Assembly: GCA_965207735.1 (NCBI GenBank)
Contig: OZ242296.1
Span: 5,024,001-5,088,000 of the forward strand
Direction of reading: 5' to 3'
Source of the DNA: Candidatus Versatilivorator sp.
GTDB lineage: Bacteria > Acidobacteriota > Terriglobia > Versatilivoradales > Versatilivoraceae
Length of the DNA: 64,000 nucleotides
Part shown: positions 2,006 to 51,464 of the stretch, one piece after another
Layout: the number at the start of each line of letters is the position of its first letter
How positions within the stretch are numbered: position 1 is the stretch's first letter
Program-made: the position numbers and the translations under genes
The notes under the pieces: model-generated
Databases searched by the model: none
Seen by the model: only the letters and a program-made list of their open reading frames with translations
What the model was told of the DNA's origin: nothing

Positions 2006-2011
2006 CTCTAG

Positions 2012-3591
2012 GAGTCTGCGCCGCAGGACGATTTCGGAAAGTTCAAGAGCGAGAGGCTACTGCGCAAGGCCGGTTCCAAGGAGTGCTTGGGAGCCACTTG
2101 GGCGTTGATAGAGTCTCAAGCGTCCTGTGGGCTCCCACAATGGGCGGTTGAGGACCTCCGTGGCCCTGGGTATTGGGTGGAAATCCCTTGCTTCAGGCCG
2201 CCATCAACGCACTCATCCTCTTGATGTTGAGGGCCAGACACACCAAGTCCCACTCCCCCTGCACTGATTGCAAGCCCCGCAGACTGAACCGTCGGAATCC
2301 CAGCCCCTCCTTGATCCACCCATGAGGGGCTTCGGCAATCCACTTCCTCCGCCGATACTCCACCTGACCGGCTAGGCTGGCCAGCTTCTTCCTCATACGA
2401 CTCTTGGCCGGATGCTTCCTGGGATCGATCTCTACCGCCCGCTTCCCCTCGCGCCCCAGCGCAACATAACCGTCCACTCCTCTCTCTTCCAGGGCCTGCA
2501 AGTCCTCCTCATTGCAGTAGCCCGCATCCGCCAGCACCTGTTTCGGTATCTCCTGGAAGCTCTCCTCCACCTCCTCCAGCAACTCCATCATCTGCCCCTG
2601 ATCGCTCGCCTGCGCCGTTACCTCGGTGGCCACAATGATCTGGTGCTCTCCGTCCACCGCCACCTGCGCGTTGTAGCATTGCTGGAACCCCTCGGTGGAA
2701 GTCTTCATGATCCGGCTTTCCGGATCGGTGAAATTACTCTGCGCCTTCTCCTCCGGTTCTCCGTAGGCCCGCTTGTAGGGCCGTCGTGCTTTCGGGTTGC
2801 GGTCCTGTCCCGGTTTGCGCCCCCGCTCCTCATCGGCCTCCCGCTGGGCCGCCTCCAGCCGCTGCTTGGCCGCCTCGATCGCCGCCAGCCGGTCCTCCCG
2901 CCGCCGCAACTCCTCGGGCAACTCATCCCCACGCCGGTCTTCCCCGTACCGCTCATCTTCCTCCCGGTCCTCCCGCCGCGCCTTCTTCAACAACTCATGG
3001 ATCTCTGCCTTCAGTTGCCGCTCCCGCTCCTTCATCCGACCATAGCTCATCGCCTTGCGCCGGCTCGCGTTCGCCCGCACCTTCGTCCCGTCGATCCCCA
3101 ATCGCCCCAACCCCACCATCCCCATCTCCCGCGCCAAGCTCACCACCTGTACGAACAGCTGCTTGAAGTCCTTCAAATGCCGGCGGCGAAACTCGCACAA
3201 CGTCCGATGCTGCGGAAAGTTCCCCGCCGCCAGCATCCGAAACGCCACGTCTTCCTCCAGCTTCCTCGCGATCTTGCGCGACGAGAACACCCCTGTCGCA
3301 TAGGCGTAAATCAACACCTTCACCATCATCCGCGGCTCGTAGGGCGAGTTGCGCCTCCCGTCCTCTTCATAGGGCCGGTAAAACGCTCTCAACTCCAGCC
3401 CATCCACCAACTCACTCACCTGATGGGCCAAGTGCCCTTCCGGTACCCACTCCCCCAGGTCCGGCGGCAACATCAACAGTTGCTTCGGCTGATACGGGCG
3501 AAACCTTGTCCCCATCCACCACCTCCTATGATGTCTCTAAGCCCGTTATTGTATCATTCAGCCCTGCCCGGGTTTTCTGCGGCGCAGACTC
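2012..3591 (-). mobile_element. IS1182-family insertion sequence, copy 1
   Basis: 15-bp terminal IRs GAGTCTGCGCCGCAG (2012-2026 and 3577-3591), flanked by CTAG at 2008-2011 and 3592-3595; single transposase ORF. Confidence 0.92.
2193..3515 (-). CDS. IS1182-family DDE transposase (440 aa)
   Basis: DUF772-like N-terminus (YAYATGVFSSRKIA); IDGTKVRANAS, TDPESRIMK, YNAQVAVD, LADAGY, GFRRFSLRGL. Confidence 0.93.
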   Translation of the reverse strand: MGTRFRPYQPKQLLMLPPDLGEWVPEGHLAHQVSELVDGLELRAFYRPYEEDGRRNSPYEPRMMVKVLIYAYATGVFSSRKIARKLEEDVAFRMLAAGNFPQHRTLCEFRRRHLKDFKQLFVQVVSLAREMGMVGLGRLGIDGTKVRANASRRKAMSYGRMKERERQLKAEIHELLKKARREDREEDERYGEDRRGDELPEELRRREDRLAAIEAAKQRLEAAQREADEERGRKPGQDRNPKARRPYKRAYGEPEEKAQSNFTDPESRIMKTSTEGFQQCYNAQVAVDGEHQIIVATEVTAQASDQGQMMELLEEVEESFQEIPKQVLADAGYCNEEDLQALEERGVDGYVALGREGKRAVEIDPRKHPAKSRMRKKLASLAGQVEYRRRKWIAEAPHGWIKEGLGFRRFSLRGLQSVQGEWDLVCLALNIKRMSALMAA

Positions 3592-3595
3592 CTAG

Positions 3596-4707
3596 CCCGC
3601 ATTTCTCAGTGCGCCATGGAAAGGCGCCTTCTTCCAACGGGTGCGAAACCCGTCCAACAACTGTCGCTCCGGTTGGTAGCAGCCAGGGCGGATCATGGAG
3701 GTAACGATATGGTCTGAAGCCCTCTGGTGTCAAAGGGCCGCTTAAGGCGGTTCAGCGAGCATGCGGGCCGGAACGCGAGTGAACGTCGAGCAGGCCTCGA
3801 AACGGGCAATGCGGGGGCCGACCCACCTGAGAAATGGGGAAGGCCGAAGACGGAGGGGGAAGCGAGCGACGCGGGCACCCCTTTGGACCCGCCGGGGTAG
3901 TGGCGCTGGCACGCATGGAAGGGGAAGAAGGCAGCAACATGGGAAGCCCTGTGGGTGGTGAGGCACGCACCGAACCGGAAGCTCGCGAGAGTCAGTCTAG
4001 GCCGACAGGGTGGCGGAGAGGCCTGTAGTACCGGAGAAGCCGGGTAATACCGGTGGAGGGAAGGGGCCTCAGGTGAGGAGCGGTGACCGAAGGGGGAAGG
4101 GTCCCGGGAGTGGCGAAAGCCTGAAACCCCGACCAAAAAAGGGCCGGAGACTCCGGAAGCATCACATGCAAAAGTGAAAGGGTCGTCGGAGGAGGACGGC
4201 GTCGTCAGGGCATCAACAGGCCTGGCGGCAACCCGGGAGCGGAAGTGGATGGAGTGGGGGACGGGTGCCAATCCCATAGGAGTCGTCCACGGATGCGAGC
4301 GGGGACCTGTGTGCGAGACGCATGATCCCACTGGAGAGCCGAGATGCGGGAAAACCGCACGTCCGGTTCGGAGAGCGGGGACTGGAAACGTGATAAGGGA
4401 GCCGGACTGAGGCCCGAAGCGAAAGCGACGGAATAGCCACCGGACCCTATAGTCAACGCGCCAGTCCTCGACTCTACCCAGGTCGCTGGTGCCATGACGA
4501 CAAGTAGTTTATCTTCAGTACGTTGATTGGCTCTATGGTAAGGGCTTGCGGGTAACAGACTGCGCTGGGCATGCCTTGGCTTGTCTTTTTCCCTTCAGCG
4601 CGCACATGCTCCCTCGCGCGTAGTGACCGCTACGCTCTTCGGTCGCGAGCACGCGCTGAAGGGAAAAATCCTGCGCCATGTTCATGCCCCCTGGTGAGAA
4701 ATGCGGG
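3596..4707. mobile_element. MITE (~243 bp without the intron), left IR interrupted by a group II intron; copy 1
   Basis: Removing 3609-4477 restores CCCGCATTTCTCA|CCAGG, the exact inverse of the right end CCTGGTGAGAAATGCGGG (4690-4707). CTAG flanks both sides. Internal 17-bp-stem hairpin at 4586-4602/4652-4668. No ORF. Parent IS family uncertain (CC- ends resemble IS1380). Confidence 0.85.
3609..4477 (+). ncRNA. ORF-less group II intron (IIB-like), 869 nt, copy 1
   Basis: 5' GTGCG. Domain V GAGCCGAGATGCGGGAAAACCGCACGTCCGGTTC (4336-4369, AGC triad). Long domain VI with bulged A at 4471 and 3' AC. EBS1 TGAGAAA (3828-3834) and EBS2 GCGGGC (3763-3768) match the 5' exon. No RT ORF. Confidence 0.92.
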
Positions 4708-4718
4708 CTAGTCTTGCC

Positions 4719-19319: not shown

Positions 19320-19320
19320 G

Positions 19321-31371: not shown

Positions 31372-31653
31372 ATGTACCGCTTCATATCCGTGTCTCTCCC
31401 GAAACCCGTCAAAGTCTCCAGCGCCTCGGCACCCAGCGGCGCCGAAGAACTGGTCGCGCCGGTCAAGGCCGCGCACCCCGAACCGATCACTGGATGGATC
31501 CCGGCTAGGCTGGAGGGTGGTGTCTGGGGAGCTCGCTTCCAAGGGGACACCCGCTACCTCCCAACCGACCTCGAGGGCCTCACCATCGCTGTTCAGAGCA
31601 GTCTGATCTTCGGCTGGTTTCTACTCGGCTATGCCAAGTGCAGTTCCAATTAG
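31372..31653 (+). CDS. Small hypothetical protein, probably truncated at the junction with low-GC cargo
   Basis: Plausible coding stretch GWIPARLEGGVWGARFQG..LP..LEGLTIAV; composition shifts near 31600. Confidence 0.3.
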   Translation: MYRFISVSLPKPVKVSSASAPSGAEELVAPVKAAHPEPITGWIPARLEGGVWGARFQGDTRYLPTDLEGLTIAVQSSLIFGWFLLGYAKCSSN

Positions 31654-31655
31654 AG

Positions 31656-32141: not shown

Positions 32142-32250
32142 AGCCAGCAAAGTCCTCTTTGGTCGCCCGCTACGCAATGACTGGAATTCGCGCTTTGTGG
32201 GTGGCCTGGATGCCGGGTCTGTGCTCCTGCGGGTTTCGTACTTTCGCCCC

Positions 32251-33459: not shown

Positions 33460-33503
33460 AGTGTAACCTCCTACTGGATGGATCGTCCAGTAGGAGAGTT
33501 AAC

Positions 33504-37400: not shown

Positions 37401-37837
37401 AAGCGTTTATCCTGCGAATGTCGCAATACCAAGGAACTGACTCGGATATGGAGTCGCTTGCAAGCATGGCCGTAAACAAGCCTCCTCGACAGTGGACGGA
37501 CGCTGACATCGACCGCGCAGCCGTTGAGTTAGCAGACATGGCGCGCGACTTCACCAGACATGAGGCCTATGCACATGTCAAGGGAAGGCCGGACCATCGC
37601 CTTGCGATGGCTGTCGTGGTTGGGCTGGACGGCGAGCCGATTCACGACGATTTTGAGGTTACCGAGCGAGAGCAATCGCAGGTAGACGTCATCATCCAGC
37701 GGATGAGGCAAAGCTTGAGCGAAAGTGGCGAATCCGAACAAAACGTCATCTTGGCTGCACTCGCCAGAATTACAGCCGAGTACCTGGGATCTAGGGGAGA
37801 ATCAAGCGTCTCGGGGTCGAAAGAGGAGGCTTCGTGA
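34469..37837 (+). CDS. sspC: Large P-loop ATPase (SspC-like)
   Basis: RSIRIDTD, Walker A TGPYGSGKS, Walker B FIDEMGK, LHQ, EWAKIQGRF, WPLHP, FGQNQRSIF; overlaps the DUF4007 stop. Confidence 0.82.
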   Translation: MSLTDRVHIARRFQRSIRIDTDLKERAAIEGFVCPQSSAVLLETMAHHISQSGQGAFTWTGPYGSGKSSLVVALSAALSGNTQVRRLAAQILGEQTAEEVWKALPPGEKGWCILPIVGRREQPAQVVGEAICKQRYVRNGSMGLWTDQVVFDALTRISKRAPKQGGGLIVFIDEMGKFLEGAAYDGTDIYFFQQLAELASRSNGRLIVVGILHQAFEEYAHRLSREMRDEWAKIQGRFIDLAVNTGWEEQLDLLGRAIESDQKPSPASNGIVERVARLTRPHVDARLLASCWPLHPIVACLLGPISRRRFGQNQRSIFGFLNSTEPQGFRDFLQTADDDSLYTPDRLWDYLKFNLEPSIMASPDGHRWAMAVDALDRCQGAGGDEFHLRILKTIALVELFKERSGLTSSLELLSLVLPSQNTLSVEEAVSKLEEWSLVLHRKFSNSYGVFEGSDFDIERAIDQAYEGVGELDWGRLTQLAGLQPVIAKRHYHKTGAIRWCDTALVALSELDRTVTEYVPSNGAIGAFFLALPIQGDAPDMVERIVKRASSISTEWEVVVGVPERTGWSITSLARDLMALEKVRDGTPELQGDRIARREVQARIADLQGYIESELGRALDQAWWHRRQGRAQRLDSVELNSLASDLANTRFPHAPHIHNELLNRMKPSTNAVAARNALLKHMALHEGEKRLGIKGYPPEGGLFDSLLLATGLYAETAGEWRIVDPNFAGMDPSGLSPAWQAATDYLKHNSHIAVPVSDIYDIWRKAPFGIREGLLPLLAVAFLQSRRGDLALYREGVFQPRLTELDAEYLTNDPSDVQLRWMEMSGISRQLLSDLAEIVRHMDPTNALSHLEPIDVARGLVSIYDRLPVWVGRTQRLSNEAKRVRQLFKRASDPNRFIFDDIPHLVLGQKEDSTVVPDVAVMVRQGLTELSDAYPNMLRRLRETLLVELGVPSTSPSMLAELRARAENIRQLSGNHRLEAFILRMSQYQGTDSDMESLASMAVNKPPRQWTDADIDRAAVELADMARDFTRHEAYAHVKGRPDHRLAMAVVVGLDGEPIHDDFEVTEREQSQVDVIIQRMRQSLSESGESEQNVILAALARITAEYLGSRGESSVSGSKEEAS

Positions 37838-38676
37838 TGTCTTCCGGCTCTAAACACCACGTTCTAGGACTGTCAGGGGGACGCGACAGCGCTGCACTGG
37901 CAATCTACATGCGAGAGATCCATCCTGACCTGGAGGTGAAATATTTTTTCACTGACACCGGCAAAGAGTTGCCGGAGGTATACGAGTTTTTGGTCAAGCT
38001 AGAAGGCTTCCTGGGTAAGCCTATCCTTCGATTGAACCCAGACCGGGACTTCGACTTCTGGTTAAAGCAATACAACAACTTTCTGCCTTCGGCTCAGACG
38101 CGGTGGTGTACGAGGCAATTGAAGCTGAGACCATTTGAGAAGTGGGTGCGCCCAATGCTCGAAGCGGGAGACACCGTCTACAGCTACGTAGCCATCCGTG
38201 CTGACGAAGAGTACCGGGAGGGGTATTCTTCCAAACACGACCTACTAATAGTCAAACTTCCGCTGAAGGATGCTGGAATTGACAAGTCCGGTGTTATGGA
38301 GATATTGGAAGGCACGGGGATCGGCCTGCCGGAATATTACGAGTGGCGCACACGTAGCGGTTGTACATTCTGCTTCTTCCAACAAAAGATCGAGTGGGTG
38401 CGCTTAATGGACCGACACCCTGGATACTTCGAGGAGGCCAAGAAGTACGAGAAGAACGCGCTCGAACACGGTTCTCCCTTCACCTGGAGCCAGGGGGAGT
38501 CACTCGATGCGTTATCGAGGCCAGAGCGCATTGCACAGATCAGGAAAGACCACGAGGATCGTTTAAAGCGGATGCGAATCAAGAGACAGGTCAACCCCCT
38601 CCGCCCAGATGCCGAACCACTAGATATTGACGACCTGTACGGTCAGGCCAAGGTCTGTCTTGCCTGCCACAAGTGA
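37834..38676 (+). CDS. sspD: PAPS-reductase-family protein (SspD-like)
   Basis: PP-loop LSGGRDS, DTGKELPE, RWCTRQLK, IRADE, RSGCTFCFFQ; terminal CLACHK. Confidence 0.88.
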   Translation: MMSSGSKHHVLGLSGGRDSAALAIYMREIHPDLEVKYFFTDTGKELPEVYEFLVKLEGFLGKPILRLNPDRDFDFWLKQYNNFLPSAQTRWCTRQLKLRPFEKWVRPMLEAGDTVYSYVAIRADEEYREGYSSKHDLLIVKLPLKDAGIDKSGVMEILEGTGIGLPEYYEWRTRSGCTFCFFQQKIEWVRLMDRHPGYFEEAKKYEKNALEHGSPFTWSQGESLDALSRPERIAQIRKDHEDRLKRMRIKRQVNPLRPDAEPLDIDDLYGQAKVCLACHK

Positions 38677-38924
38677 AGGGATTTCCGATAGCTAGTGGGG
38701 ATACCGTCCAAACTGCAATGTCGAACGCTAAACCGTCTCGCCTCAAGGTTGCCCTTGCGGATGCAAATCCTCTTTACATCCTTCCGAAGGAACCAATAGC
38801 CGCGCAGGTACTCATCCCCGCGTTGATGACCACGGCATCTTTGGACGTAATGATGGGATACTTCTCCAGCTCGTCCTTTGCTGAAATCGCCCCCGGTCTA
38901 GCGACATTCCTGCGGAACACTAAG

Positions 38925-40853
38925 CCGAAGTTCCTGACCCACCGACAAGATAACTCCTTTATCTTCAATCATCAATCAGGAATCTCAGGTTGTCTTGCCT
39001 GGGAACATCCTGATGAGCTCGAAGGCCCTTTGCTGTAGCGGGGTCGGCTCGGTCAATCGCTGGACTCGCGGACCATCGGGTTCGGAGGGCAATCGGCACT
39101 GGTGGCGGGCCCGCGTCGCCATCTGCGCCATCAACGTCTCCAGGCTCTGCAGCGGCAAGCCGTCCTCGGTGAGGCGTTTGCTCTTCTTCCGTTTGGCGGA
39201 GTCCGACGGCTGGGCCGCCAGCACCGGGTCTCGCCGTGCCCGTTCCGCTTCCAACTCCTCGTCATCGAACAGCAACGGAGCCAGGGCCAGCCGCAGATGC
39301 CACTGAACGTAATAGGCCAGCAGGCACAGGAACAGATGAGCCCGCACCCGGCTCTCCACCCGATGACGGATGGGGCGGATGTGCAGGTCGACGGTCTTGA
39401 GGGAGCGGAAGGCCCGCTCCACCCGCGTCAGGTCCTTGTAGCGGCGCACCACCGCGGCTGTTGGCAGGCGATCGGCTGGCTCGCTGGTCCTCAGCATGTA
39501 GAACCCGTCCAGTTGCGCCTCCCGGATGATGGCGTCGGTGCGCCGTTCATAGTGGAAGGACCCGTCTGCGATCTGGGTCCGGAAGTGTTTGGCCACCTGG
39601 AAGCGGTTCTTGACCCGGCCGACTTTCTCGGCGATCTCGGTCGCCGACAAGGGCGTGCGGGTCCGTCTGGCCACCTGGCGGGCGATTCCGGCCAGCGCCT
39701 CCTCGGTGGCTGTCAGCAAAGCCTCCCGCTTCCGCCGCCGATGCTCGGCCAGCAGCGGGTTGTGGCAGACGATGAGCCTCTCGCCCGGATAGTCCGGGCT
39801 GCGGACTTCGGCCAGATGACGCTCGTCGAACAGGGAGAGCTGAACCGCCTCGCTCTCCACCAGACGGCGTATCTGGTGGTGGCGCAGGGCTGAGACCCAC
39901 CCCACTCCCGGATGACGCTTCAGATGGCTGATCTGCGTCTCGGTCAGCAGCCCGCGGTCCCCCACCAGCACCACCCGCTCCAGACCAAACCGACCCCGCA
40001 CCTTCTCCACCTGATCCCCCACCGTGGTCGGATCCCCCGTGTTGCCGGCATAGGCCTGCACCGACAGCGGCCGCCCCATCTGGTCGGCCAGCACCCCGTA
40101 GACCACCATGGGCCGGTCCCGCCTGCCGTCCCGGTTGTGGCCGAACTGCATCAGCGAGCAGGTCTGGCCTTCGTAGTAACTGCTGCTGACGTCATAGAGC
40201 ACCGCATCCCCTTCCGCCAGGTGCCGCTTGGCCAGCTTGCGCTCAATCCGGTCCTGACGCTCCAGCAACCAGTCCATGGCCTCATAGAGATCGTCCTCGT
40301 CGGTGTCCTCAAGGGACAGTTCCTCACCCAACGTGGTGGTGTGCCAAAGACGGGTGGTGGCCAGCTTGGAGGCCGGATAGAGCAGACGCTGCAGGATCAT
40401 GGCCAAGACCCGGTCCCGTTGGGGAGAGGGTCGGGAATCGATCAGCGCCGGCAGCTTCAGCTGCCGCACCACTTCCAGCAGCAACTCGACGTGGCCATGA
40501 GGCAGGGAGCGTTCGATGGCGAAGAGTTGGTCGGGATGGACCAGGGGTTCGTTCTTGAGCACGCGCCGGAGGCGCTCGATCTTGTCCTTGGGCCAATGGG
40601 AGAGATTGGCCAGGGTGCGTTTATGGACCTTTTTACCCTCACGGCGGCCTTCGCGCAGGAGGATGGCAGGGGGAGAGTTGCGGTTGGGGACGGTTTCGAC
40701 GTACATGGGACTACGATATCACATACAACTATCATGTCAAGATAAATGCTAATCATATACATGGGAACAACACTCCACACGCCTCAATCCTCTTCCCCAA
40801 GAAAACAAATGGCTTAAGGCGATTTTTTGGGTGTAAAATGGGAGGAACTTCGG
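38925..40853 (-). mobile_element. IS1634-family insertion sequence
   Basis: IRs CCGAAGTTCCT / AGGAACTTCGG; 6-bp target duplication ACTAAG (38919-38924 and 40854-40859). Confidence 0.92.
38985..40706 (-). CDS. IS1634-family transposase (573 aa)
   Basis: LLREGRREGKKV.KRTLANLS, LYDVSSSYYEG, VGDRG, YKDL..VERAFRSLK, IRPIRH, RVRAHLFLCLLAYY. Confidence 0.92.
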   Translation of the reverse strand: MYVETVPNRNSPPAILLREGRREGKKVHKRTLANLSHWPKDKIERLRRVLKNEPLVHPDQLFAIERSLPHGHVELLLEVVRQLKLPALIDSRPSPQRDRVLAMILQRLLYPASKLATTRLWHTTTLGEELSLEDTDEDDLYEAMDWLLERQDRIERKLAKRHLAEGDAVLYDVSSSYYEGQTCSLMQFGHNRDGRRDRPMVVYGVLADQMGRPLSVQAYAGNTGDPTTVGDQVEKVRGRFGLERVVLVGDRGLLTETQISHLKRHPGVGWVSALRHHQIRRLVESEAVQLSLFDERHLAEVRSPDYPGERLIVCHNPLLAEHRRRKREALLTATEEALAGIARQVARRTRTPLSATEIAEKVGRVKNRFQVAKHFRTQIADGSFHYERRTDAIIREAQLDGFYMLRTSEPADRLPTAAVVRRYKDLTRVERAFRSLKTVDLHIRPIRHRVESRVRAHLFLCLLAYYVQWHLRLALAPLLFDDEELEAERARRDPVLAAQPSDSAKRKKSKRLTEDGLPLQSLETLMAQMATRARHQCRLPSEPDGPRVQRLTEPTPLQQRAFELIRMFPGKTT

Positions 40854-42015
40854 ACTAAGGCCCCCCTACGCATGGTCGTTAGTCCGTTCCTCACGGACGA
40901 CGACTTTGATGCGTTGACACAGGACGATGATCGATTAGTTTCTCTTGCGCAGCAAATTCTAATCGATGACGTGCCAGGAGAAGATGCTATTGTCCGTCAC
41001 ACACTTGAATGCCTAGCCTACCTCATCACGCAGAAACGGCTCATTCTGAAGTTCGCGGTGATGCGGCGGGCAATGTTCCACCCTAAGGTGTGGTTATTTG
41101 AGGACAGTGTGAATCGGGTAGCCCTTCACGGTTCGACGAACCTAACGAAGACCGCTCTTTCCCGCAATTGGGAACAGCTCACCCTGTCCCGTGACTGGAA
41201 GGGCGAGGAGGCGATCTTTCATGTCGAACGACTACGACATGAGTTCGATGATCTGTGGTCAGGTGGAGATGAAGATTGCTGCGTCCTTCCGCTGCCCGAT
41301 GCCGTCACTAGAAGGGTAATTGAGAGATACAAGACGAATGGCATGCCGGATGAAGACGTCCTTGGTGCGCTCTGGAGAAAGGCCCATGGTGTGGAAGTGC
41401 CTATGGCGCTACGCGACAGGCCACGGACGGCGGCACTGAAGATCCCGCGATGCCTTGTTTACGAGACAGGAGACTTTGCCCACCAAGGCATGGCCGTTAG
41501 AGCCTGGGAGGCATCCGGCCGCAGAGGCATTCTCGAAATGGCCACCGGCGCTGGCAAAACGATCACGTCGATGATCTGCGCCACAAGGTTGCAAAATGAA
41601 ATCGGGAATCTGCTCGTCGTCGTATCTGCTCCCTACCGCCCCTTGATCGAGCAATGGTGCGAGGAAATACTCGCATTTGGTGTCCGCCCAATTAATCTCA
41701 CCGCATTTAGTGGACTGGCGGCGCGCAACAGGGAAATCAAGCAGGTAGGCCGCCGACTGTATATGGGTTATTCACGCGCCGAGGTGCTGGTTGTCAGCAA
41801 CGACACGTTGTGCACAGAGCAGTTCATTCGATCCGTCTCAGAAGTCGGAGCTAACAAACTGCTGATTGGCGACGAGTGTCACAACCTTGGTGCAGCGTCT
41901 TTTACCGCAAACCCACCGGAGGAATTCAACTACCGGCTCGGCCTTTCCGCCACACCCATCCGCCAGTATGACGAAGAAGGAACGGAAGCTCTCATCGCTT
42001 TTTTCGGTGACATTT

Positions 42016-43502
42016 GAGCCTTTTGCAAAATTCGGAATCGGGCATGACATTGGGCTGGCAACAGTGATGTTCCGGCGGTGACTACCCAGCTGCAAAGACC
42101 CTTTTGAAGGAAAAAGCCCGAATCTGATGGCCGGATGGCCAGCGGTCGCCGGACGCAGGCACAGCTTACCCTCTCCCGGCCTTGAGGCGGGCGAACCTGC
42201 TGTGCGGTTGGGGGTGGCAACCCGGTCTTCAGAGCGTCAGGCGCATCAACTGATCCACCGTCAGGGCCAGAATGCCGAACATCAGGTGGCACCTCACCTT
42301 GTCGGGGCCGCGAACCCTCACCTGCCTCCCGCCAAACTCCTCCTTGAGCCGTCCGTTGACCCGCTCCACCGTCGAGCGTTCCCGGTAGCGCCGCGCCTCG
42401 GGAGTCACTTGGCCGATACAGCGCCGGGCCAGTGCCTCCCGCTTCCGCTCGGCTTTCAAGGTAGCTCTTCGGCGGGGGTTGACGTCAATAATCGGCACAT
42501 GCCCCAGCTTCTCACTGAAGGCCCGGATCTCCGGCGCATCGTAGGCGCTGTCCATCAAGTCGTAGAGACTCTCGACCCGCCTTGCCGTCAGCGTCGCCAG
42601 CGGAATGGCTGCCTGAGAGTCATGCACCGAGGCCGAGGTCAGCAGACAACTGACCGGAATCCCGCCGTCAATGGCGTCGAGGTGTAGCTTGTAGCCGGTC
42701 CAGCTCTCCTGATGCCCCTTGGCGTTGCGCTTGACGCCGATGTCGCAGGCCTTGGGCAACTCCTTCAACATTTCCTCCAGCGTCATCGACCCCTGCCGCT
42801 CCAGCCGGCTCAACCGCTTGGGCCGTCGCTCGCCCTTCGGCGGCCGGCCCCGCCGGCGTTTCCGCTTGGCCTCCGGCGCAGCCTTGGCCGCTGGCTTTTC
42901 CCGTCCCGCAATCGCCGTCGAGTCCCTCGACACATGCCCCGCCAAGTGGCCCTTCAGCGTCTCCTCCAGCAATGCCTCGTGCAAACGCCCCGGCAGGTCG
43001 CTCTCAGCGAATTCCGCAAAGGCCCGCGAGAAGGTCGACTCGCTCGGTACCTCCCACGCCCTCTCCCAGCCGCACAGCCGCCGCAGCCTCCCCTCACTCC
43101 TCAGCCGCTCCACCAATCCCCGCGTGGTCGCCACCTCCAGCATCGACTTCGCCAGATAGGCTCGCGCCAGCACTGCCCGATCCTCCAGCGGCCGGCCACG
43201 CCAGCCCCGACTGTAAGGCAGCAACTCCTCCACCCGCACCAACTCCAATACCTGCACCAGCCGCTGGTAACGCTCTCCCAGAGGCCCCAAAACTTCCTCC
43301 AGCAGGGGAAACAGCTCTCGTTGAAACCGGAACCAGTGTCGTGATAGGGTTTCCCTAAGGGGCAAGTTCCACCTCCGTTCATCATGTGGTTCAGACACCT
43401 TCATGATACAACAGACAGTGGTCTTGCCCCTCCTTCCACCTGCCCTCCTTGATCTTTCCCCACGTGAAAATTCCCGCTATCTGCGAATTTTGCAAAAGGC
43501 TC
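42016..43502 (-). mobile_element. IS5/IS1182-like insertion sequence
   Basis: 19-bp IRs GAGCCTTTTGCAAAATTCG; 4-bp target duplication ATTT (42012-42015 and 43503-43506). Confidence 0.9.
42229..43404 (-). CDS. DDE transposase (IS5/IS1182-like, 391 aa)
   Basis: PSESTFSRAF, RDSTAI, WTGYKLHL, SASVHDS, MDSAYD, RSTVERVNGRLK. Confidence 0.9.
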   Translation of the reverse strand: MKVSEPHDERRWNLPLRETLSRHWFRFQRELFPLLEEVLGPLGERYQRLVQVLELVRVEELLPYSRGWRGRPLEDRAVLARAYLAKSMLEVATTRGLVERLRSEGRLRRLCGWERAWEVPSESTFSRAFAEFAESDLPGRLHEALLEETLKGHLAGHVSRDSTAIAGREKPAAKAAPEAKRKRRRGRPPKGERRPKRLSRLERQGSMTLEEMLKELPKACDIGVKRNAKGHQESWTGYKLHLDAIDGGIPVSCLLTSASVHDSQAAIPLATLTARRVESLYDLMDSAYDAPEIRAFSEKLGHVPIIDVNPRRRATLKAERKREALARRCIGQVTPEARRYRERSTVERVNGRLKEEFGGRQVRVRGPDKVRCHLMFGILALTVDQLMRLTL

Positions 43503-44305
43503 ATTTGTTTCTCTTTTACTCTTGAAGAGGCGATCGGGAAGTGCCTTACCAACTATGACTACCACGTGCACCCTGTCGAGCTTAATATTGGAGAGATGCA
43601 GGAGTGGAGTGATCTTACAGACCAAATAGCGAGCCAAGCCTGGAAACTGGAATCCGGAAAGAGCAACGACCCCTATCTTGAAAACCTATTGCGCAAGCGC
43701 CGCCTAGTGCTGGAGACCGCAAGCACCAAACTTGACATGCTATCCCGTTTATTGGACACCGAGGGGCCACGCGATCTCCAATACACTCTAATCTATGCCA
43801 CTGACAAGAAGCCGGAGCAACTCAAAGAGGTGAACCGTTTGCTGGCGAGCCGACGTGTGTTGTTCCATCAGCTCACCCAAGAAGAAACAAATAGTCGCCA
43901 GCAAACCAATCGCATACTCTCGGCGTTCCAGGAAGGAGTGACTCAGGTGCTAACCGCCAAGCGTGTGCTGGACGAAGGTGTCAACATTCCGCAAATAAAG
44001 CTCGCCTTTATCCTTGCGAGCACTACGGTAAAGAGGCAGTGGGTGCAGCGCCGGGGGCGTTTGCTGCGCACATGCAAAGCCATCGGCAAAACTCACGCCG
44101 TGATTCACGATTTCGTCGTATTGCCGCCGGGCACATCCTCATCAAAGGTTGCCCAGCTTGATAAGGATGCACGCAATCTAGTACGTTCGGAATTAAATCG
44201 TGTCTGGGAATTTGCGCGACTCAGCCGTAACGGCCCACTACCTGGTGGGCCGTATGAAGCCGTGCAACACCTTCAGAGGCTGGCAAATGAAAGGGTTGTA
44301 CACTG

Positions 44306-44545
44306 ATGGCATACAACGACGATAGAATTCTTTTTGTACTTATCGGTGAGCTTGAAAAAGTGCCGGAAAGGTGCGAAGGCTATCGGGAAAGATTGAGACA
44401 CCTACTCCGTGACGTACTGCGCTACGAGGAGAAGCATGCACTGTCCAGGAGAACCATAGTCAAGGACATTGCCAACCTAGTGAATAAGGTTGGGATGAAT
44501 TTGTACAAGTCCCCACCGAAAGCTGACGAGCAAGAAGGCCGATGA
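44306..44545 (+). CDS. Small helical protein (PbeB position)
   Basis: 79 aa; start and stop overlap the helicase and the SMC-like ATPase. Confidence 0.75.
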   Translation: MAYNDDRILFVLIGELEKVPERCEGYRERLRHLLRDVLRYEEKHALSRRTIVKDIANLVNKVGMNLYKSPPKADEQEGR

Positions 44546-46656
44546 AGTTACTACACGCTCATATCGAGAGATTCAGACTGCTGAAGGATATTGCGATTGA
44601 GTTCTCCACGCACAGCGATCGTAATTTGACGGTTATTCGAGCCGCGAACGAGAGCGGCAAGACGACTCTGTTAACCGCATTACAGTGGGGGCTATTTGGA
44701 GACGAGGCGTTGCCGAACGATAAGGCTGAATTTCGCCTCAGCCCTATTGACACATCCTCTGGTGCAAGGGTGCCCGTTACAGTCTCTGTTGAAATCGACT
44801 ACGAAATAAGCAAGGGCAACGATGTCCGTAAGTACCGATTAATACGATTTGCTGGAGAGATCGCGAGCGGTGCAAAGTGGAAGCGCGATAGCACTAACAT
44901 CAAACTGTTTCGCCTAGGAGCGAACGGCGCCGAATCCCTTCGCAATCCAGAAGCCCATATCCATTCCCATTTGCCGAAGGAGTTGCGGGAGCTTTTTTTC
45001 ACTGACGGAGATCGTGCTCTGAGCTTCATTGAAGGCAGCAAGGGCGATCAAATGGATAGGGTTGAGGGTGCAATCCGCTCTCAGCTAGGCATTAGTGTCG
45101 TCGAAGATGCCCTCAACCACGCCCGCAAGGTCAGAACCGATCTAAATCAAAAGCTTCGCAAGAACGCTGGAAATCGGCAGGAACTTCAAACCGTGTCCGA
45201 CCGGCTAACGGCGTTGCATGAACAGATGCCTAGCCTTGAAAATGAGATCCGTAAGGCTAAGAAAGCCCGCCTCCGGCTCGAAGACCTGGAGGAGGATGCT
45301 GATCGAAAGCTTTCTGATGCCCTGCGTAAAGGGAACAGGGAAGAATTGGAAAAGCAGCGTCAATTAGTCAAACGCAGCCGACTGTCTGCAGAAAGGGATG
45401 CAACCCAGGCTGCTCGCGATCATGCGGATTTATTCAAGAGCGAACTTATTGGCAAGCAGTTGCTTGTCGGCCCATTCGCAAAGGCCAAAGCAGTGCTAGA
45501 CGGTCTGCACAAGCAGGGCAAGATACCGAACCAGACAATACCAGTTCTTGAAGACCGGCTAAACCAGCCTACCTGCATTTGCGGCGAAACACTTGAACCA
45601 AGTGAATTGAACGGCCGGCTACGCCGTACACACATCCAGCATTTGATCGAAGAGAGCCGCAATGCTGATGTGATCCAAGAGAAAGTCACAGCGCTCTATT
45701 ACGGGGCGCAGGAACTCTTGAGGCCAGTGAAGGAGCGCAAATGGTCCGATGAGTATAGCGATGTTTTTGGACGTCGCCAGAGAGCGTCAACTCGGCGCGC
45801 GGAACTCGGCGGGGCGGAGGCTGCTATAGAGGCGAAAATCAAGGCACTGCCGGATGTGGATATCCAACAGCTACGCACCGCCCGAAACCGTTATCGCGAC
45901 CAGTCCAAGGAGTTCCAGAGAAAAGAAATTCGCCTAAACGCACAATTAGAGACCACGCAGCGCGACATCAAGCTCAACGAAACAAAGAGAGAAAAACTCT
46001 CCCAACACGACGAGAAGAGCAGGCAGATTGCAGCAGAGTTTAAGGTTGCCGATGATTTGCTGCAAGTGCTTTCCAACGCGATTGAAACCATGAAGACGAG
46101 AGACCTTAAGAAGGTCAGCGATCGCATGAATGTTCTGTTTCTCGACATGATTGGCTCTGATCGGGCACAAAGGTCGATCATCACCCGCGCATCTATCACA
46201 CCTGAATTTCATATAGTCGTTTTCGGTCGAAACGACCATCCACTTGATCCTTCTCAGGACCTAAATGGCGCATCACGTCGTGCATTGACGATCGCTTTCA
46301 TTCTGGCTCTCGCACGTGTCAGTAAGGTGAAAGCACCCAACGTGATCGACACGCCTCTCGGAATGATGAGCGGTTACGTTAAACAAGCGGTTCTTCAACT
46401 CGCGTGCCAACAAAGCTCACAGTTAATTTTGTTTCTGACCCACTCAGAGATCGCCGGGTGTGAGGACATATTAGACGAGCGGGCCGGGCGCATTTATACG
46501 CTAACGAACCCTGCCCATTTCCCAAAGATTCTCGTTCATGACCCCGGGGTGGACGATGCGCAGGTATTATTGTGTAGCTGCAGCCACAGAACAACCTGTC
46601 AGGTGTGTGAACGGCGAGAGGTGGCAGACCTCAATGCTGAACAATTGAAGGCATAG
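44542..46656 (+). CDS. pbeC: SMC/Rad50-like ABC ATPase (PbeC/DndD-like) with a CxC hook
   Basis: Walker A AANESGKT, LFFTDGD, coiled coils around CICG, signature LNGASRR, Walker B VIDTP, H-loop FLTH; C-terminal CSCSHRTTCQVC. Confidence 0.85.
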   Translation: MKLLHAHIERFRLLKDIAIEFSTHSDRNLTVIRAANESGKTTLLTALQWGLFGDEALPNDKAEFRLSPIDTSSGARVPVTVSVEIDYEISKGNDVRKYRLIRFAGEIASGAKWKRDSTNIKLFRLGANGAESLRNPEAHIHSHLPKELRELFFTDGDRALSFIEGSKGDQMDRVEGAIRSQLGISVVEDALNHARKVRTDLNQKLRKNAGNRQELQTVSDRLTALHEQMPSLENEIRKAKKARLRLEDLEEDADRKLSDALRKGNREELEKQRQLVKRSRLSAERDATQAARDHADLFKSELIGKQLLVGPFAKAKAVLDGLHKQGKIPNQTIPVLEDRLNQPTCICGETLEPSELNGRLRRTHIQHLIEESRNADVIQEKVTALYYGAQELLRPVKERKWSDEYSDVFGRRQRASTRRAELGGAEAAIEAKIKALPDVDIQQLRTARNRYRDQSKEFQRKEIRLNAQLETTQRDIKLNETKREKLSQHDEKSRQIAAEFKVADDLLQVLSNAIETMKTRDLKKVSDRMNVLFLDMIGSDRAQRSIITRASITPEFHIVVFGRNDHPLDPSQDLNGASRRALTIAFILALARVSKVKAPNVIDTPLGMMSGYVKQAVLQLACQQSSQLILFLTHSEIAGCEDILDERAGRIYTLTNPAHFPKILVHDPGVDDAQVLLCSCSHRTTCQVCERREVADLNAEQLKA

Positions 46657-46658
46657 CG

Positions 46659-47117
46659 ATGTCTATAAATGCATTTGCGACATCTGATATTGAACTACCT
46701 GAGAAGTATCGGAAATACTTCCACGCTTATTGCCTTACGCGCACGGAAGGGTCTCAAAACAACCCCGAGGACAGTCCCTTCCCGAGAATGGTCGATATGT
46801 GGTTTCTAGCCCTTTGCATTGCCGTCAAGGAGGATCTGAAGCCGGAGTTCAATTCCACGGGGAAGACCTATAAGGCCATCCCGGGGGTCGTTTTCGGAAG
46901 CGATAGTTGGCGGTCTAACGCACTCATGCTTCTCGCCATCGCTCACACCGGTGACGTTGAGATCACCGACAAGCCGCATGAAATGATGAGAATTGCTAAT
47001 GGCTACGCATTGGCTGGATTGCCACGTCTCATAGGAATACTAAATGAACGGGAAGATGATACCGCGATTGACTATCTATCAGATATTGTCAAAGAGATGA
47101 CAACGGCTGGACCGTGA
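46659..47117 (+). CDS. Small protein resembling Dnd-associated protein 4 (PbeD position)
   Basis: PF..VDMWFLA...LLAIAHTGD...ANGYALAGL pattern; starts 2 bp after the ATPase stop. Confidence 0.65.
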   Translation: MSINAFATSDIELPEKYRKYFHAYCLTRTEGSQNNPEDSPFPRMVDMWFLALCIAVKEDLKPEFNSTGKTYKAIPGVVFGSDSWRSNALMLLAIAHTGDVEITDKPHEMMRIANGYALAGLPRLIGILNEREDDTAIDYLSDIVKEMTTAGP

Positions 47118-47977
47118 CGTAGTCACCGGATTATTCCCTTTCCAGGAAAGATTGACAGAGCGGCATTAACGAAAAACGATCTGTCAGGAGGTCTTTGGGG
47201 CGAGTCTTGTGGGATGAATTGAAGTGTCCTGCGGGAAGACTTTCCGGTCGGCTAAAAAAACAACAGGGAAAAGCAGGAGACCACAAGTGGCCTAAAAGGC
47301 CGAGAGAGGCAAGCCTAGGGGATGCACACCACCCGATATCTCCGATCCGCAGCAAGGGCAGCTTGCCACTCCACTTGATGGCCTCGGACTCAGGGTTGAT
47401 ACTCGGCTGACCTGTCCGCCAGTAACCATTCGGCAGAGCCGTGGAAGACGGTCGGTCGGCATCCTCCCCAAGCGATCAAGCCACATTGCGTCGGTGTCGC
47501 CGCTGAGCCACCAATGCAGCGGCTCGACCACCCCCCGGACAGGCGAGCCGCGAAACCCCGCTAAACAGCTGGCGAACCGACCATATCGTTCCGACACCGC
47601 GGGTCCCATCTCCGCTGTCTGCCCCCGGTCCCGATAGAGGTGGAAGGGGGATGCTTCGTCGGTTGCTCGGTCGGCGTAGAGGATAAACCTGCAGGAGGTC
47701 AAGCCCACGGCTTGACCGAACAGTTACCGTCCATGAACGTCCTGGATGGTCCAATGGATTCCCATATAGAAAGAGGGATTTATTGAGGGGAATGCAGCTG
47801 GCATATCCTGGCTAAGTCCTTTATAAGTAATAGGTTACAGTTGATTAATTGCAGTCCGTGCAGCGGCCTCTGGTCCTATTAATCCTGTCTCTTTCCAAAA
47901 CGCAAACAGCTGGCTGTTTCTCCTCTGAATGACCCGTCCCGTCGTCGGGGACGGGGGGTCGCCTGACCATCGTGCCG

Positions 47978-48010
47978 TCTGATACTGTTATGATATCATT
48001 ATGATATTAA
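47978..48010 (+). promoter_or_regulatory. Probable TA autoregulatory operator/promoter
   Basis: Palindrome ATGATATCAT (47990-47999) and repeated TGATA boxes just upstream of the RHH antitoxin. Confidence 0.5.
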
Positions 48011-48030
48011 ACTTGCCGAAGGAGGTCGAT

Positions 48031-48273
48031 ATGCCAGACGTAGCGCTTCGTGGAATTCCCGATTCCCTGCACCGGGAACTCAAGTCATCTGCGAGTCGGA
48101 ACCACCGCAGCCTCAATGGGGAGATCCTCGCGAGGTTAACGGAGTCGGTTCGCCCTGAACCGGTAGACCCGCAGGACCTCCTGAATCGCATCCGGCAGCG
48201 AAACGAGAAACTTGGACCGGTCGATCTCAGTGAGGCCACGCTACGTGAGATGCGGAACTCCGGACGACCATGA
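48031..48273 (+). CDS. Arc/FitA-like ribbon-helix-helix antitoxin
   Basis: VALRGIPDSLHRELKSSASRNHRSLNGEILARL; GGAGGT RBS; overlaps the PIN gene. Confidence 0.88.
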   Translation: MPDVALRGIPDSLHRELKSSASRNHRSLNGEILARLTESVRPEPVDPQDLLNRIRQRNEKLGPVDLSEATLREMRNSGRP

Positions 48274-48671
48274 TTGTAGTTGACACGAATGTGATGGTTC
48301 GTCTGGTAGTGGGCGGAGCAGACGGCATCGAGGCGGCCATGTTGTTCGAGCGGGAGACTGAGTGGGCGGCCCCCAGCATCCTCCTGAGTGAGTTGCAAAA
48401 CGTCCTGGTCGGCTTCGTGCGCCGGGGCGCGGTAACCTCGGAGCAGGCCAAAGCGATGAGCGATGACGCTGCTGTCGTTCTGGGACACCGCATCGCCAGC
48501 GTGCCTGGAAACCAGGTGATTGATGTCGCGCTGGAGTGCGGCCTGACCGCCTACGATGCCGAGTTCGTCGCGCTCGCTCGAACCCTGGGCGTTGGGTTGG
48601 CTACTCTGGACAACGCGGTCCTGCACGGCGCCGCAGACGTGGCAGTGTCGTTGCGGACTCTGGTGCGCTAG
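48270..48671 (+). CDS. vapC: VapC-family PIN-domain toxin
   Basis: IVVDTNV, ELQNVL, LTAYDAEFVALA, LATLD; the TAG stop lies inside the CTAG target of the adjacent IS. Confidence 0.92.
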   Translation: MIVVDTNVMVRLVVGGADGIEAAMLFERETEWAAPSILLSELQNVLVGFVRRGAVTSEQAKAMSDDAAVVLGHRIASVPGNQVIDVALECGLTAYDAEFVALARTLGVGLATLDNAVLHGAADVAVSLRTLVR

Positions 48672-50251
48672 GAGTCTGCGCCGCAGGACGATTTCGGAAA
48701 GTTCAAGAGCGAGAGGCTACTGCGCAATGCCGGTTCCAAGGAGTGCTTGGGAGCCGCTTGGGCGTTGATAGAGTCTCAAGCACCCTGTGGGCTCCCACAA
48801 TGGGCGGTTGAGGACCTCCGTGGTCCTGGGTATTGGGTGGAAATCCCTTGCTTCAGGCTGCCATCAGCGCACTCATCCTCTTGATGTTGAGGGCCAGACA
48901 CACCAAGTCCCACTCCCCCTGCACTGACTGCAAGCCCCGCAGACTGAACCGTCGGAATCCCAGCCCCTCCTTGATCCACCCATGAGGGGCTTCGGCAATC
49001 CACTTCCTCCGCCGATACTCCACCTGACCGGCTAGGCTGGCCAGCTTCTTCCTCATACGACTCTTGGCCGGATGCTTCCTGGGATCGATCTCTACCGCCC
49101 GCTTCCCCTCGCGCCCCAGCGCAACATAACCGTCCACTCCTCTCTCTTCCAGGGCCTGCAAGTCCGCCTCATTGCAGTAGCCCGCATCCGCCAGCACCTG
49201 TTTCGGTATCTCCTGGAAGCTCTCCTCCACCTCCTCCAGCAACTCCATCATCTGCCCCTGATCGCTCGCCTGCGCCGTTACCTCGGTGGCCACAATGATC
49301 TGGTGCTCTCCGTCCACCGCCACCTGCGCGTTGTAGCACTGCTGGAACCCCTCGGTGGAAGTCTTCATGATCCGGCTTTCCGGATCGGTGAAATTGCTCT
49401 GCGCCTTCTCCTCCGGTTCTCCGTAGGCCCGCTTGTAGGGCCGTCGTGCTTTCGGGTTACGGTCCTGTCCCGGTTTGCGCCCCCGCTCCTCATCAGCCTC
49501 CCGCTGGGCCGCCTCCAGCCGCTGCTTGGCCGCCTCGATCGCCGCCAGCCGGTCCTCCCGCCGACGCAACTCCTCGGGCAACTCGTCCCCACGCCGGTCT
49601 TCCCCGTAGCGCTCATCTTCCTCCCGGTCCTCCCGCCGCGCCTGCTTCAACAACTCTTCGATCTCTTCCCTCAGTTGCCGCTCCCGCTCCCGCATCCGAC
49701 CGTAGCTCATCGCCTTGCGCCGGCTCGCGTTCGCCCGCACCTTCGTCCCGTCGATCCCCAATCGCCCCAACCCCACCATCCCCATCTCCCGCGCCAAACG
49801 CACCACTTGCACCAACAGCCGCTTGAAGTCCTTCAAGTGCCGCCGGCGAAACTCGCTCAGCGTCCGATGCTGCGGAAAGTTCCCCGCCGCCAGCATCCGA
49901 AACGCCACGTCCTCCTCCAACTTCCTGGCTATCTTGCGCGACGAGAACACCCCCGTCGCATAGGCGTAGATCAATACCTTCACCATCATCCCCGGCTCAT
50001 AGGGCGAGTTGCGCCTCCCGTCCTCTTCATACCGCCGGTAGAACGCTCCCAACTCCAGCCCATCCACCAACTCGCTCACCTGATGCGCCAAGTGTCCTTC
50101 CGGTACCCACTCCCGCAGGTCCGGCGGCAGCATCAACAACTGCTTCGGTTGATACGGGCGAAACCTCGTCCCCATTCACCACCTCCCATGATGTCTCTAA
50201 GCCCGTTATTCTATCATTCAGCCCTGCCTGGGTTTTCTGCGGCGCAGACTC
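48672..50251 (-). mobile_element. IS1182-family insertion sequence, copy 2
   Basis: Same 15-bp IRs; CTAG at 48668-48671 and 50252-50255; colinear with copy 1 (offset 46660). Confidence 0.92.
48853..50175 (-). CDS. IS1182-family DDE transposase (440 aa)
   Basis: Differs from copy 1 at about 14 residues (counted by eye). Confidence 0.93.
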   Translation of the reverse strand: MGTRFRPYQPKQLLMLPPDLREWVPEGHLAHQVSELVDGLELGAFYRRYEEDGRRNSPYEPGMMVKVLIYAYATGVFSSRKIARKLEEDVAFRMLAAGNFPQHRTLSEFRRRHLKDFKRLLVQVVRLAREMGMVGLGRLGIDGTKVRANASRRKAMSYGRMRERERQLREEIEELLKQARREDREEDERYGEDRRGDELPEELRRREDRLAAIEAAKQRLEAAQREADEERGRKPGQDRNPKARRPYKRAYGEPEEKAQSNFTDPESRIMKTSTEGFQQCYNAQVAVDGEHQIIVATEVTAQASDQGQMMELLEEVEESFQEIPKQVLADAGYCNEADLQALEERGVDGYVALGREGKRAVEIDPRKHPAKSRMRKKLASLAGQVEYRRRKWIAEAPHGWIKEGLGFRRFSLRGLQSVQGEWDLVCLALNIKRMSALMAA

Positions 50252-50255
50252 CTAG

Positions 50256-51367
50256 CCCGCATTTCTCAGTGCGCCATGGAAAGGCGCCTTCTTCCAACGG
50301 GTGCGAAACCCGTCCAACAACTGTCGCTCCGGTTGGTAGCAGCCAGGGCGGATCATGGAGGTAACGATATGGTCTGAAGCCCTCTGGTGTCAAAGGGCCG
50401 CTTAAGGCGGTTCAGCGAGCATGCGGGCCGGAACGCGAGTGAACGTCGAGCAGGCCTCGAAACGGGCAATGCGGGGGCCGACCCACCTGAGAAATGGGGA
50501 AGGCCGAAGACGGAGGGGGAAGCGAGCGACGCGGGCACCCCTTTGGACCCGCCGGGGTAGTGGCGCTGGCACGCATGGAAGGGGAAGAAGGCAGCAACAT
50601 GGGAAGCCCTGTGGGTGGTGAGGCACGCACCGAACCGGAAGCTCGCGAGAGTCAGTCTAGGCCGACAGGGTGGCGGAGAGGCCTGTAGTACCGGAGAAGC
50701 CGGGTAATACCGGTGGAGGGAAGGGGCCTCAGGTGAGGAGCGGTGACCGAAGGGGGAAGGGTCCCGGGAGTGGCGAAAGCCTGAAACCCCGACCAAAAAA
50801 GGGCCGGAGACTCCGGAAGCATCACATGCAAAAGTGAAAGGGTCGTCGGAGGAGGACGGCGTCGTCAGGGCATCAACAGGCCTGGCGGCAACCCGGGAGC
50901 GGAAGTGGATGGAGTGGGGGACGGGTGCCAATCCCATAGGAGTCGTCCACGGATGCGAGCGGGGACCTGTGTGCGAGACGCATGATCCCACTGGAGAGCC
51001 GAGATGCGGGAAAACCGCACGTCCGGTTCGGAGAGCGGGGACTGGAAACGTGATAAGGGAGCCGGACTGAGGCCCGAAGCGAAAGCGACGGAATAGCCAC
51101 CGGACCCTATAGTCAACGCGCCAGTCCTCGACTCTACCCAGGCCGCTGGTGCCATGACGAAAAGTAGTTCATCTTCAGTACTTTGATTGGCTCCATGGTA
51201 AGGGCTTGCGGGCAACAGACAGCGCTGGGCATGCCCTGGCTTGTCTTTTTCCCTTCAGCGCGCACATGCTCCCTCGCGCGTAGTGACCGCTACGCTCTTC
51301 GGTCGCGAGCACGCGCTGAAGGGAAAAATCCTGCGCCATGATCATGCCCCCTGGTGAGAAATGCGGG
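50256..51367. mobile_element. MITE with intron-split left IR, copy 2
   Basis: Same ends as copy 1; CTAG at 50252-50255 and 51368-51371; about 9 substitutions versus copy 1. Confidence 0.85.
50269..51137 (+). ncRNA. ORF-less group II intron, copy 2
   Basis: GTGCG...CTCGACTCTAC; I found no differences from 3609-4477 by eye. Confidence 0.92.
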
Positions 51368-51464
51368 CTAGGGTTTGCTCTGGTGAAGATGGGAACCTGT
51401 CTCCGCTGACAGCTCGACAGGATACACAGGAGAGACCGTTCCGGGCTGCCCGATCTGGGCGTGG

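Follow-up and report, generated by a model that had tools for sequence, protein, structure and literature searches.

Colinear stacks of an IS1182 element, an IS1380-type MITE and a group II intron in a Candidatus Versatilivorator genome

Two stacks of three mobile elements

The window analyzed here is a 64,000-nucleotide stretch of contig OZ242296.1 (GenBank assembly GCA_965207735.1, positions 5,024,001 to 5,088,000 of the forward strand) from Candidatus Versatilivorator sp., a member of the Acidobacteriota. It contains two stacks, at 2008-4711 and 48668-51371, in which an insertion sequence (IS) of the IS1182 family adjoins a miniature inverted-repeat transposable element (MITE) of IS1380 type, and a group II intron interrupts the terminal inverted repeat (TIR) of the MITE. 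The stacks align without gaps at 97.4% identity, and their flanks are unrelated. In both, the layers run CTAG, IS1182, CTAG, 13 nt of TIR, intron, the remaining 230 nt of MITE and CTAG; the CTAG tetranucleotides start at 2008, 3592 and 4708 in copy 1 and at 48668, 50252 and 51368 in copy 2. Layer by layer, the copies differ at 60 nt of IS1182 (14 of 440 amino acids [aa] in the transposase), at 9 of the 230 nt of MITE body and at none of the 869 nt of intron, in agreement with a preliminary description of these stacks as colinear and free of indels, with about 14 residue differences, about 9 differences in some 230 nt and identical introns. The genome is one 5.26-Mb contig (G000:C1), on which genome-wide censuses of the IS, the intron and the MITE were made.

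In copy 1, the outer target duplication of IS1182 (2008..2011) corresponds to a 4-nt empty site in seven relatives. Comparison of genomic copies assigns the IS1182 at 2012..3591 (minus strand, 1580 bp, 15-bp terminal inverted repeats, left end toward the TIR) to isoform A, with eight further genomic copies of the same sequence; its intact 440-aa transposase gene (2193..3515, minus strand) matches NF033551 with 389.6 bits against a cut-off of 270 and contains DUF772 and DDE_Tnp_1 domains. The CTAG at 3592..3595 is a target duplication common to IS1182 and the MITE, based on the sequence and the genomic census. It is followed on the plus strand by the outer 13 nt of the IS1380-type TIR (3596..3608), which the site census identifies as the half-site adjoining IS1182 and within which the intron-binding sites IBS2 (3596-3601) and IBS1 (3603-3608) are predicted. 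The intron, also on the plus strand (3609..4477, 869 nt), lacks an open reading frame (ORF) and is recognized by Rfam models RF02003 and RF00029; its predicted exon-binding sites are EBS2 at 3810-3815 and an EBS1 loop at 3828-3834 that varies with the target across sister lineages, and Rfam places domains D5-D6 at 4334-4477. Inside the intron, one sigma-70-like match (10/12) lies on the minus strand at 3704-3733, directed toward the IS1182 transposase gene, where 0.6 would be expected by chance. The remainder of the 243-bp MITE (4478..4707, plus strand) contains an internal hairpin (fold z = -3.57) and the right TIR, and the target duplication at its far end closes the stack (4708..4711).

In copy 2, a PIN-domain gene (48270-48671) ends in the outer CTAG duplication (48668..48671), whose TAG is its stop codon. 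The IS1182 at 48672..50251 (minus strand; transposase gene 48853-50175) is isoform B, which lies 60 nt from isoform A. The common CTAG and outer 13 nt of TIR (50252..50268), an intron with the same sequence as copy 1 (50269..51137), and the MITE remainder with its closing CTAG (51138..51371) follow on the plus strand. Rfam recognized intron domains D1-D4 and D5-D6 in both window copies.

We compared the intron with unitigs from short-read runs X1 and X2, which derive from a single sample that may be the source. In these, a 570-nt piece of the intron matches without a difference and has a depth of 241.5 (X1) and 222.9 (X2), against 9.69 and 8.91 for single-copy flank, a ratio that corresponds to ~25 identical copies; pieces of isoform-A IS1182 reach ~9-10 times single-copy depth. 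The unitigs are too short to span the repeats. Because the invariant unitig stands at ~25 times single-copy depth, the identity of the introns is real, and neither a consensus artifact nor assembler collapse accounts for it.

The copy-1 site is empty in 7 of 13 congeneric genomes, where the left and right flanks are joined across ~4 nt. Among congeners, orthologues of site 1 lack all three elements and orthologues of site 2 hold other insertions or unrelated sequence, so these sites do not date the layers. At the G002 orthologue of window position 48668 (L344), a group II intron relic stands 13 nt into the end of an IS of another type, which suggests a further intron lineage that homes, at an equal offset, to a different IS end; in G003, this stop-codon site holds an end of that IS type.

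The IS1380-type host site

The MITE has 17 bp of its ends in common with a 1698-bp IS1380 element, whose 455-aa transposase matches NF033539 with 410.6 bits against a cut-off of 180. We counted 21 full copies of this IS1380, 18 of them identical and 20 with a matching target duplication. The 35 full-length MITEs comprise 34 alleles, the median distance of a copy being mostly 6-13 of 243 nt, and 25 of them have a matching duplication. Both elements duplicate CTAG, CTAA, TTAG or TTAA (4-bp YTAR). The 243-bp element is multicopy, contains no ORF, duplicates its target and has the TIR of an autonomous IS, as is characteristic of an IS1380-type MITE. Because nearly every MITE is a distinct allele whereas most IS1380 copies are identical, the MITEs appear to be an old family and IS1380 appears to have been active recently.

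Only one pair among the 35 MITEs is identical: the MITEs with intron at G000:C1 5027596 (window 3596-4707) and 5213340 agree over 1112 nt. The 5213340 site has a mismatched duplication, and the identity extends 3 nt past the far CTAG; the pair looks like gene conversion through intron homology. At 572744, a MITE TIR retains only the first 7 nt of the intron, a scar that loss of the intron at a short microhomology could have left.

An ORF-less group II intron at the terminal repeats

The ORF-less intron occurs in 28 copies of 868-870 nt, 22 of which are identical. All lie in TIRs, including left and right MITE ends, both IS1380 ends and solo ends; together with one copy that encodes a reverse transcriptase (RT), 29 of 29 are inserted after TIR position 13. 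The sequence has the 5' GUGYG and 3' AY ends, D1 and D5-D6 of a group II intron, and both Rfam scores (80.8 bits for RF02003 and 41.2 bits for RF00029) exceed the gathering thresholds. Its predicted EBS1 loop would pair without mismatch with TIR positions 7-13, and its predicted EBS2 with positions 1-6. In sister intron lineages, which sit in other repeats of this genome and of congeners, the EBS1 loop changes with the target and EBS2 pairing is poor. Sister lineages with different EBS1 loops (G000:C1 409328 and 12 similar sites; 4589468, 1135573 and 4261108) target two other dispersed repeats, and one of them is represented by an RT-bearing copy, an ORF-less copy of 866 nt and a remnant of 117 nt.

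With replication sense set by dnaA at 3.54 Mb and the skew maximum near 0.70 Mb, 25 of the 29 TIR introns lie in leading-strand sense (p=5e-5), and the occupancy of perfect TIRs is 24/65 in one strand sense versus 3/78 in the other. A fixed insertion point inside both terminal repeats, combined with this bias toward the lagging-strand template, is what characterizes IS-end homing of the RmInt2 type. Between ~3.84 and 4.48 Mb of G000:C1, the GC skew is reversed within the right replichore, possibly reflecting a large inversion. Occupancy is also related to transcription: based on a crude set of gene calls (3401 ORFs), at permissive TIRs without IS1182 the upstream gene points in at 14/17 intron-occupied sites versus 20/40 empty ones (p=0.02).

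The genome contains 15 RT-bearing relatives that could mobilize the ORF-less intron in trans, an arrangement of ORF-less copies beside RT-bearing relatives that is typical of trans-mobilized introns. The best candidate for a helper is the RT-bearing copy at 5004992, which lies in an IS1380 TIR, has the same EBS1 and EBS2, and encodes an intact 452-aa RT (TIGR04416, 332.9 bits against 300; RVT_1 and GIIM domains, without an endonuclease domain) that is 83% identical to the RT of a 13-copy sister lineage. The same ORF-less TIR lineage (865-869 nt, same EBS1 loop) was found in G005, G009 and G011, often as near-identical copies within a genome. Copy number and strand bias suggest that the intron splices and retrohomes. 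Its 28 copies, their different 3' exons, the replication-strand bias and the RT-bearing relatives support the view that it reached the two window sites independently and not long ago, homing in trans being the most likely route.

Most IS1182 copies lie beside IS1380-type ends

The element is assigned to the IS1182 family by its transposase score and its 15-bp inverted repeats. We identified 13 copies: 10 of isoform A, nine of which are identical or 1 nt apart, and three of isoform B, which are partly mosaic with A. The 14-residue transposase difference within the window arises because it holds one copy of each isoform. The layer-specific divergence between the stacks is real; however, it provides no clock for a single composite, since the window carries both IS isoforms and its MITEs come from an old family, in which 35 copies represent 34 alleles.

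All 13 copies have CTAG on both sides, and in 10 of them this CTAG touches a TIR, whereas only 95 of 1692 CTAG sites in the genome do so (5.6%, p=8e-11); relative to TIR-plus-intergenic CTAG sites, the background is 95/853 (11%, p=6e-8). The half-sites of the remaining three copies match the TIR at 8, 10 and 9 of 13 positions, corresponding to background tails of 1.5%, 0.24% and 0.54%. No IS1182 occurs at any of 1545 CTAGs with a TIR match below 8/13, or at any of 49 CTAGs located in introns, in IS1182 or at the ends of another IS, and the CTAG internal to the intron is unused in 28/28 copies. The left end of IS1182 faces the better half-site in 11 of 13 cases. The proposal that IS1182 targets the CTAG at the left end of the MITE in a fixed orientation needs correcting: it targets IS1380-type TIRs at large, with an orientation that is biased rather than fixed. 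A single short site of ~17-20 bp does attract two unrelated mobile elements, close to the ~20 bp first suggested.

Across the genome the layers assort independently, and IS1182 is strongly enriched beside TIR half-sites, most of all beside those split by the intron, where its frequency is some tenfold higher than at intact ones. By site class, IS1182 is present at 7/19 intron-split CTAG-TIRs (a class that includes the 7-nt intron scar) versus 2/54 intact 17-mers (p=0.0008), at 1/27 other near-perfect sites and at 3/47 sites with an 8-10/13 match. When only the orientation permissive for the intron is considered, IS1182 adjoins 7/16 split and 0/18 intact TIRs (p=0.002).

Among relatives, we counted contacts between IS1182-type elements and TIRs (match ≥11/13) by hand, as raw counts rather than ratios to CTAG totals; 5/9 IS1182-type elements touch a TIR in G009 and 1/3 in G005. 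IS-plus-intron junctions are also present in G011 and G005, two in all. In the G011 triple, the intron is 10-12 nt from its nearest sibling and the IS1182-type MITE differs by ~2/160 from its nearest, values that do not tell which of the two is older. In metagenome contigs (L076-L198), three IS1182-type subtypes abut the same IS1380-type TIR at ≥123 loci, ≥110 of them distinct, and none of these junctions carries the intron among the matches listed; they indicate spread rather than enrichment, because they have no baseline. IS1182-derived MITE families of ~110-170 bp are present in G011 (L016-L048), G009 (L049-L056) and G034 (L066-L073). There are three cases in which such a MITE and a further IS1182-type end have one CTAG in common; several of the G034 copies adjoin the end of a different repeated element.

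Assembly of the stacks and alternative explanations

We regard it as nearly certain that each stack was assembled independently in place and did not arrive as a unit. In the sequence of events that we propose, an IS1380-type MITE would bring its 17-bp site; the protein-less intron would then home, likely in trans, into the terminal repeat of the MITE, presumably by reverse splicing into the lagging-strand template with the endonuclease-less RT of a relative; and IS1182 would, likely last, insert at the CTAG beside the TIR. IS1182 may have an intrinsic preference for CTAG followed by a TIR-like half-site, and intact TIRs may be shielded by the IS1380 transposase until splitting by the intron frees the site. 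The perfect outer 13 bp are heavily used when split and rarely when intact, which fits such shielding, although we infer it from site usage only. The whole of this explanation, with its arrival order and shielding, we consider probable by a small measure. As for a three-way chain of facilitation, in which the intron splits IS1380 ends, lifts the shielding and leaves the outer 13 bp as oriented landing pads for IS1182, we put it forward tentatively and with some doubt. If it holds, one mobile element alters the quality of a target for another through a defined 17-bp sequence, providing a concrete mechanism of IS clustering beyond safe-haven arguments and a flanking-sequence rule for target choice by IS1182.

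That IS1182 came last is the best reading of an order that is unproven and for which some evidence points the opposite way. IS1182 would have arrived after the TIR, because young, identical IS copies adjoin diverged MITEs and decayed half-sites. Relative to the intron, four observations count for a late IS1182. Of the 9 TIRs that its left end faces, seven are oriented so as to permit the intron (p=0.065); the host gene points into 6/7 triple sites, as at other intron sites (14/17) and unlike the empty ones (20/40); a decayed TIR and an intron relic in G005 have an intact IS1182 (440 aa) next to them; and no outward sigma-70-like promoter was matched at the left end of IS1182.

Several results weigh against our explanation. 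Target matrices built from non-TIR flanks (81 from related genomes; 142 of 146 from a wide sample) put the TIR among the highest-ranking 1-2% of CTAG half-sites; however, the intrinsic preference is weak, being mostly a T at +7 and +8, and declines once TIR-like flanks are excluded, so sequence preference explains only part of the TIR excess. In G011, only ~3/36 IS1182-type elements adjoin a TIR, and in G009, 0/5 TIRs beside an IS1182-type end are intron-split. The idea for the test of split ends came from the finding under test, and most of its data come from a single genome; when sites are stratified by replication and transcription direction, co-occupancy drops to 6/13 versus 0/9 (p=0.023). 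Finally, the two isoform-B copies at triple sites differ from each other at 12 positions, ~9 of which are not explained as A-type tracts; if these copies diverged in place, two unmutated neighboring introns would be unlikely (Poisson 0.007). This divergence beside unmutated introns therefore points to the intron as the last arrival at those two sites, although an IS copy that moves by cut and paste can bring older differences with it. The excess of IS1182 at intron-split ends is the one unexplained result, statistically clear in one genome.

The isoform-B copies also speak for the reverse order, in which IS1182 came first and then improved the homing site, either by transcription outward from its left end or by providing IS sequence as the distal 5' exon. 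All 7 perfect permissive TIRs beside IS1182 hold the intron, versus 8/26 others (p=0.0015), and intron occupancy follows sense transcription from the upstream gene (14/34 versus 3/23, p=0.02). The missing outward promoter tells against this order, however, as do the bases of the IS end at -14 to -28, which are not enriched at other occupied sites (1/15 positions reaches p=0.02). The nine isoform-A copies that are identical or 1 nt apart must be very young, and the biases of orientation (7/9) and of host gene (6/7) would require an extra cause; we consider this order unlikely, if the most serious of the alternatives. A different possibility is that neither element helps the other and that both favor the same accessible, transcribed, fork-entry TIRs, with shared site quality and small numbers producing the association. 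The loss of strength under stratification (p from 0.0008 to 0.023) and the absence of co-occupancy in G009 are as expected on this account, and ISs cluster generally, according to the available part of a preprint (bioRxiv 10.1101/2025.07.22.666184). Yet the internal CTAG of the intron, only ~400 nt off, is never used, IS1182 is absent from all 9 intact TIRs of the leading, sense stratum, and the junctions in G011 and G005 add two more cases of IS plus intron, all of which make it improbable that site quality alone is responsible.

Chance stacking would be simpler still. Both families use CTAG, which is rare in this genome (1718 observed versus ~18,300 expected from base composition), so that later arrivals could adjoin earlier ones by accident; the many unrelated metagenome contigs in which IS1182-type ends abut this TIR are, without a baseline, compatible with chance, and only 2/146 flanks in the wide genome sample have a TIR match ≥11/13. 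Here, though, sites that make up 5.6-11% of candidate CTAGs received 10 of 13 insertions, and 0/1545 CTAGs unlike the TIR are used, a result that contradicts chance unless nearly all such sites are lethal. Since it also leaves the difference between split and intact ends unexplained, we judge it very improbable. The least credible reading, which we would give almost no weight, is that IS1182, MITE and intron transposed or were duplicated as one composite, as one branch of the preliminary description had it. The window copies are colinear and of equal length, and the 5027596 and 5213340 copies of MITE plus intron are identical; but this pair lacks IS1182 at one site, the window copies carry different IS isoforms, and the seven triple sites differ in their right-hand elements, with 3' exons that diverge within 13 nt of the intron. 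IS1182 adjoins MITEs at the left or the right, shortened MITEs and IS1380 at both of its ends, most MITEs and introns are without IS1182, and each outer end of a stack belongs to a transposase family of its own. Because right partners and 3' exons vary, most MITEs and introns lack IS1182 and the outer ends come from different families, we reject the composite; layers moving together between cognate ends, as in a composite transposon, were not found.

Some narrower mechanisms were also tried and rejected. RecA-type copying of the intron between IS-flanked sites is at odds with the seven triple sites, whose 3' sides diverge within 13 nt, and with the window pair, which in addition differs within 23 nt of the IS end. 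The 5' end of the intron is a poor mimic of the IS1182 inverted repeat, with a best match of 10/19 that 15% of random genome stretches reach. IS-end bases as a better distal exon showed no enrichment. For a circle or cointegrate route via the internal CTAG of the intron, no partial introns were found beyond IS1182, and that CTAG is unused in 28/28 copies.

Other features of the window

Between the stacks, at ~28600-48000, lies a lower-GC island (52-62%) with genes for a phage-type integrase, a cysteine desulfurase-like protein, a DUF4007 protein, a PAPS reductase-like protein, an ATPase and a split helicase, which we take to resemble a phosphorothioate-type defense cluster. The island holds two other ISs and ~30 CTAGs, none of them used by IS1182. 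Downstream of the second stack are a pair of 168-nt inverted repeats (51464-51972) and a gene for a large NHL-repeat protein with internal tandem repeats (57428-60724).

Comparison with known systems

The nested appearance of the stacks is itself ordinary, in that every layer has a precedent. The closest parallel for the intron, based on the accessible part of the report on RmInt2 (PMC4615759), is this endonuclease-less intron of Sinorhizobium meliloti GR4, which homes into the inverted repeats of ISRm17; a lagging-strand template bias is reported there for reverse splicing by endonuclease-less introns. The two systems are alike in homing into IS inverted repeats, in identical copies and in lagging-template bias, and the use of both IS ends doubles the number of targets. 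However, RmInt2 encodes its own RT, whereas here 28 ORF-less copies dominate, and the host consists of IS1380 and its MITEs, with a second IS family at the same ends. In Thermosynechococcus elongatus, the parts available to us of two reports describe ~28 related group II introns, the ORF-less ones being spliced and mobilized by the RTs of relatives (PMC2882425; PMC8643678). The ~28 copies, the trans-mobilized ORF-less introns, the diverging targets and the nesting in mobile elements resemble the present case; the differences are that those are thermophilic IIB1 introns, whereas the present system targets a TIR, has an RT devoid of an endonuclease domain and keeps its ORF-less lineage across four congeneric genomes.

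The 1698-bp IS1380 and its 243-bp non-autonomous relative, with YTAR duplications and 17 bp of TIR, conform to the IS1380 family and its MITEs, except that here the ends act as a landing site for two other element types. For the IS1182 family, a 4-bp duplication is described for ISPse1 in the portion seen of the source (PMC3281130), and in the accessible portions of a largely open-access literature we found no report of IS1182 favoring IS1380 ends or intron-split ends.

A CTAG-specific subgroup exists within the IS1182 family. The present element resembles its members in having a single transposase with DUF772 and DDE domains, short terminal repeats, a 4-bp duplication and strict use of CTAG, and it differs in an added, oriented preference for a CTAG adjoining an IS1380-type TIR, strongest when that TIR is split by the intron. 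The parts of this system are of known kinds; the oriented preference for IS1380-type ends and the excess at intron-split ends are a new variation on these.

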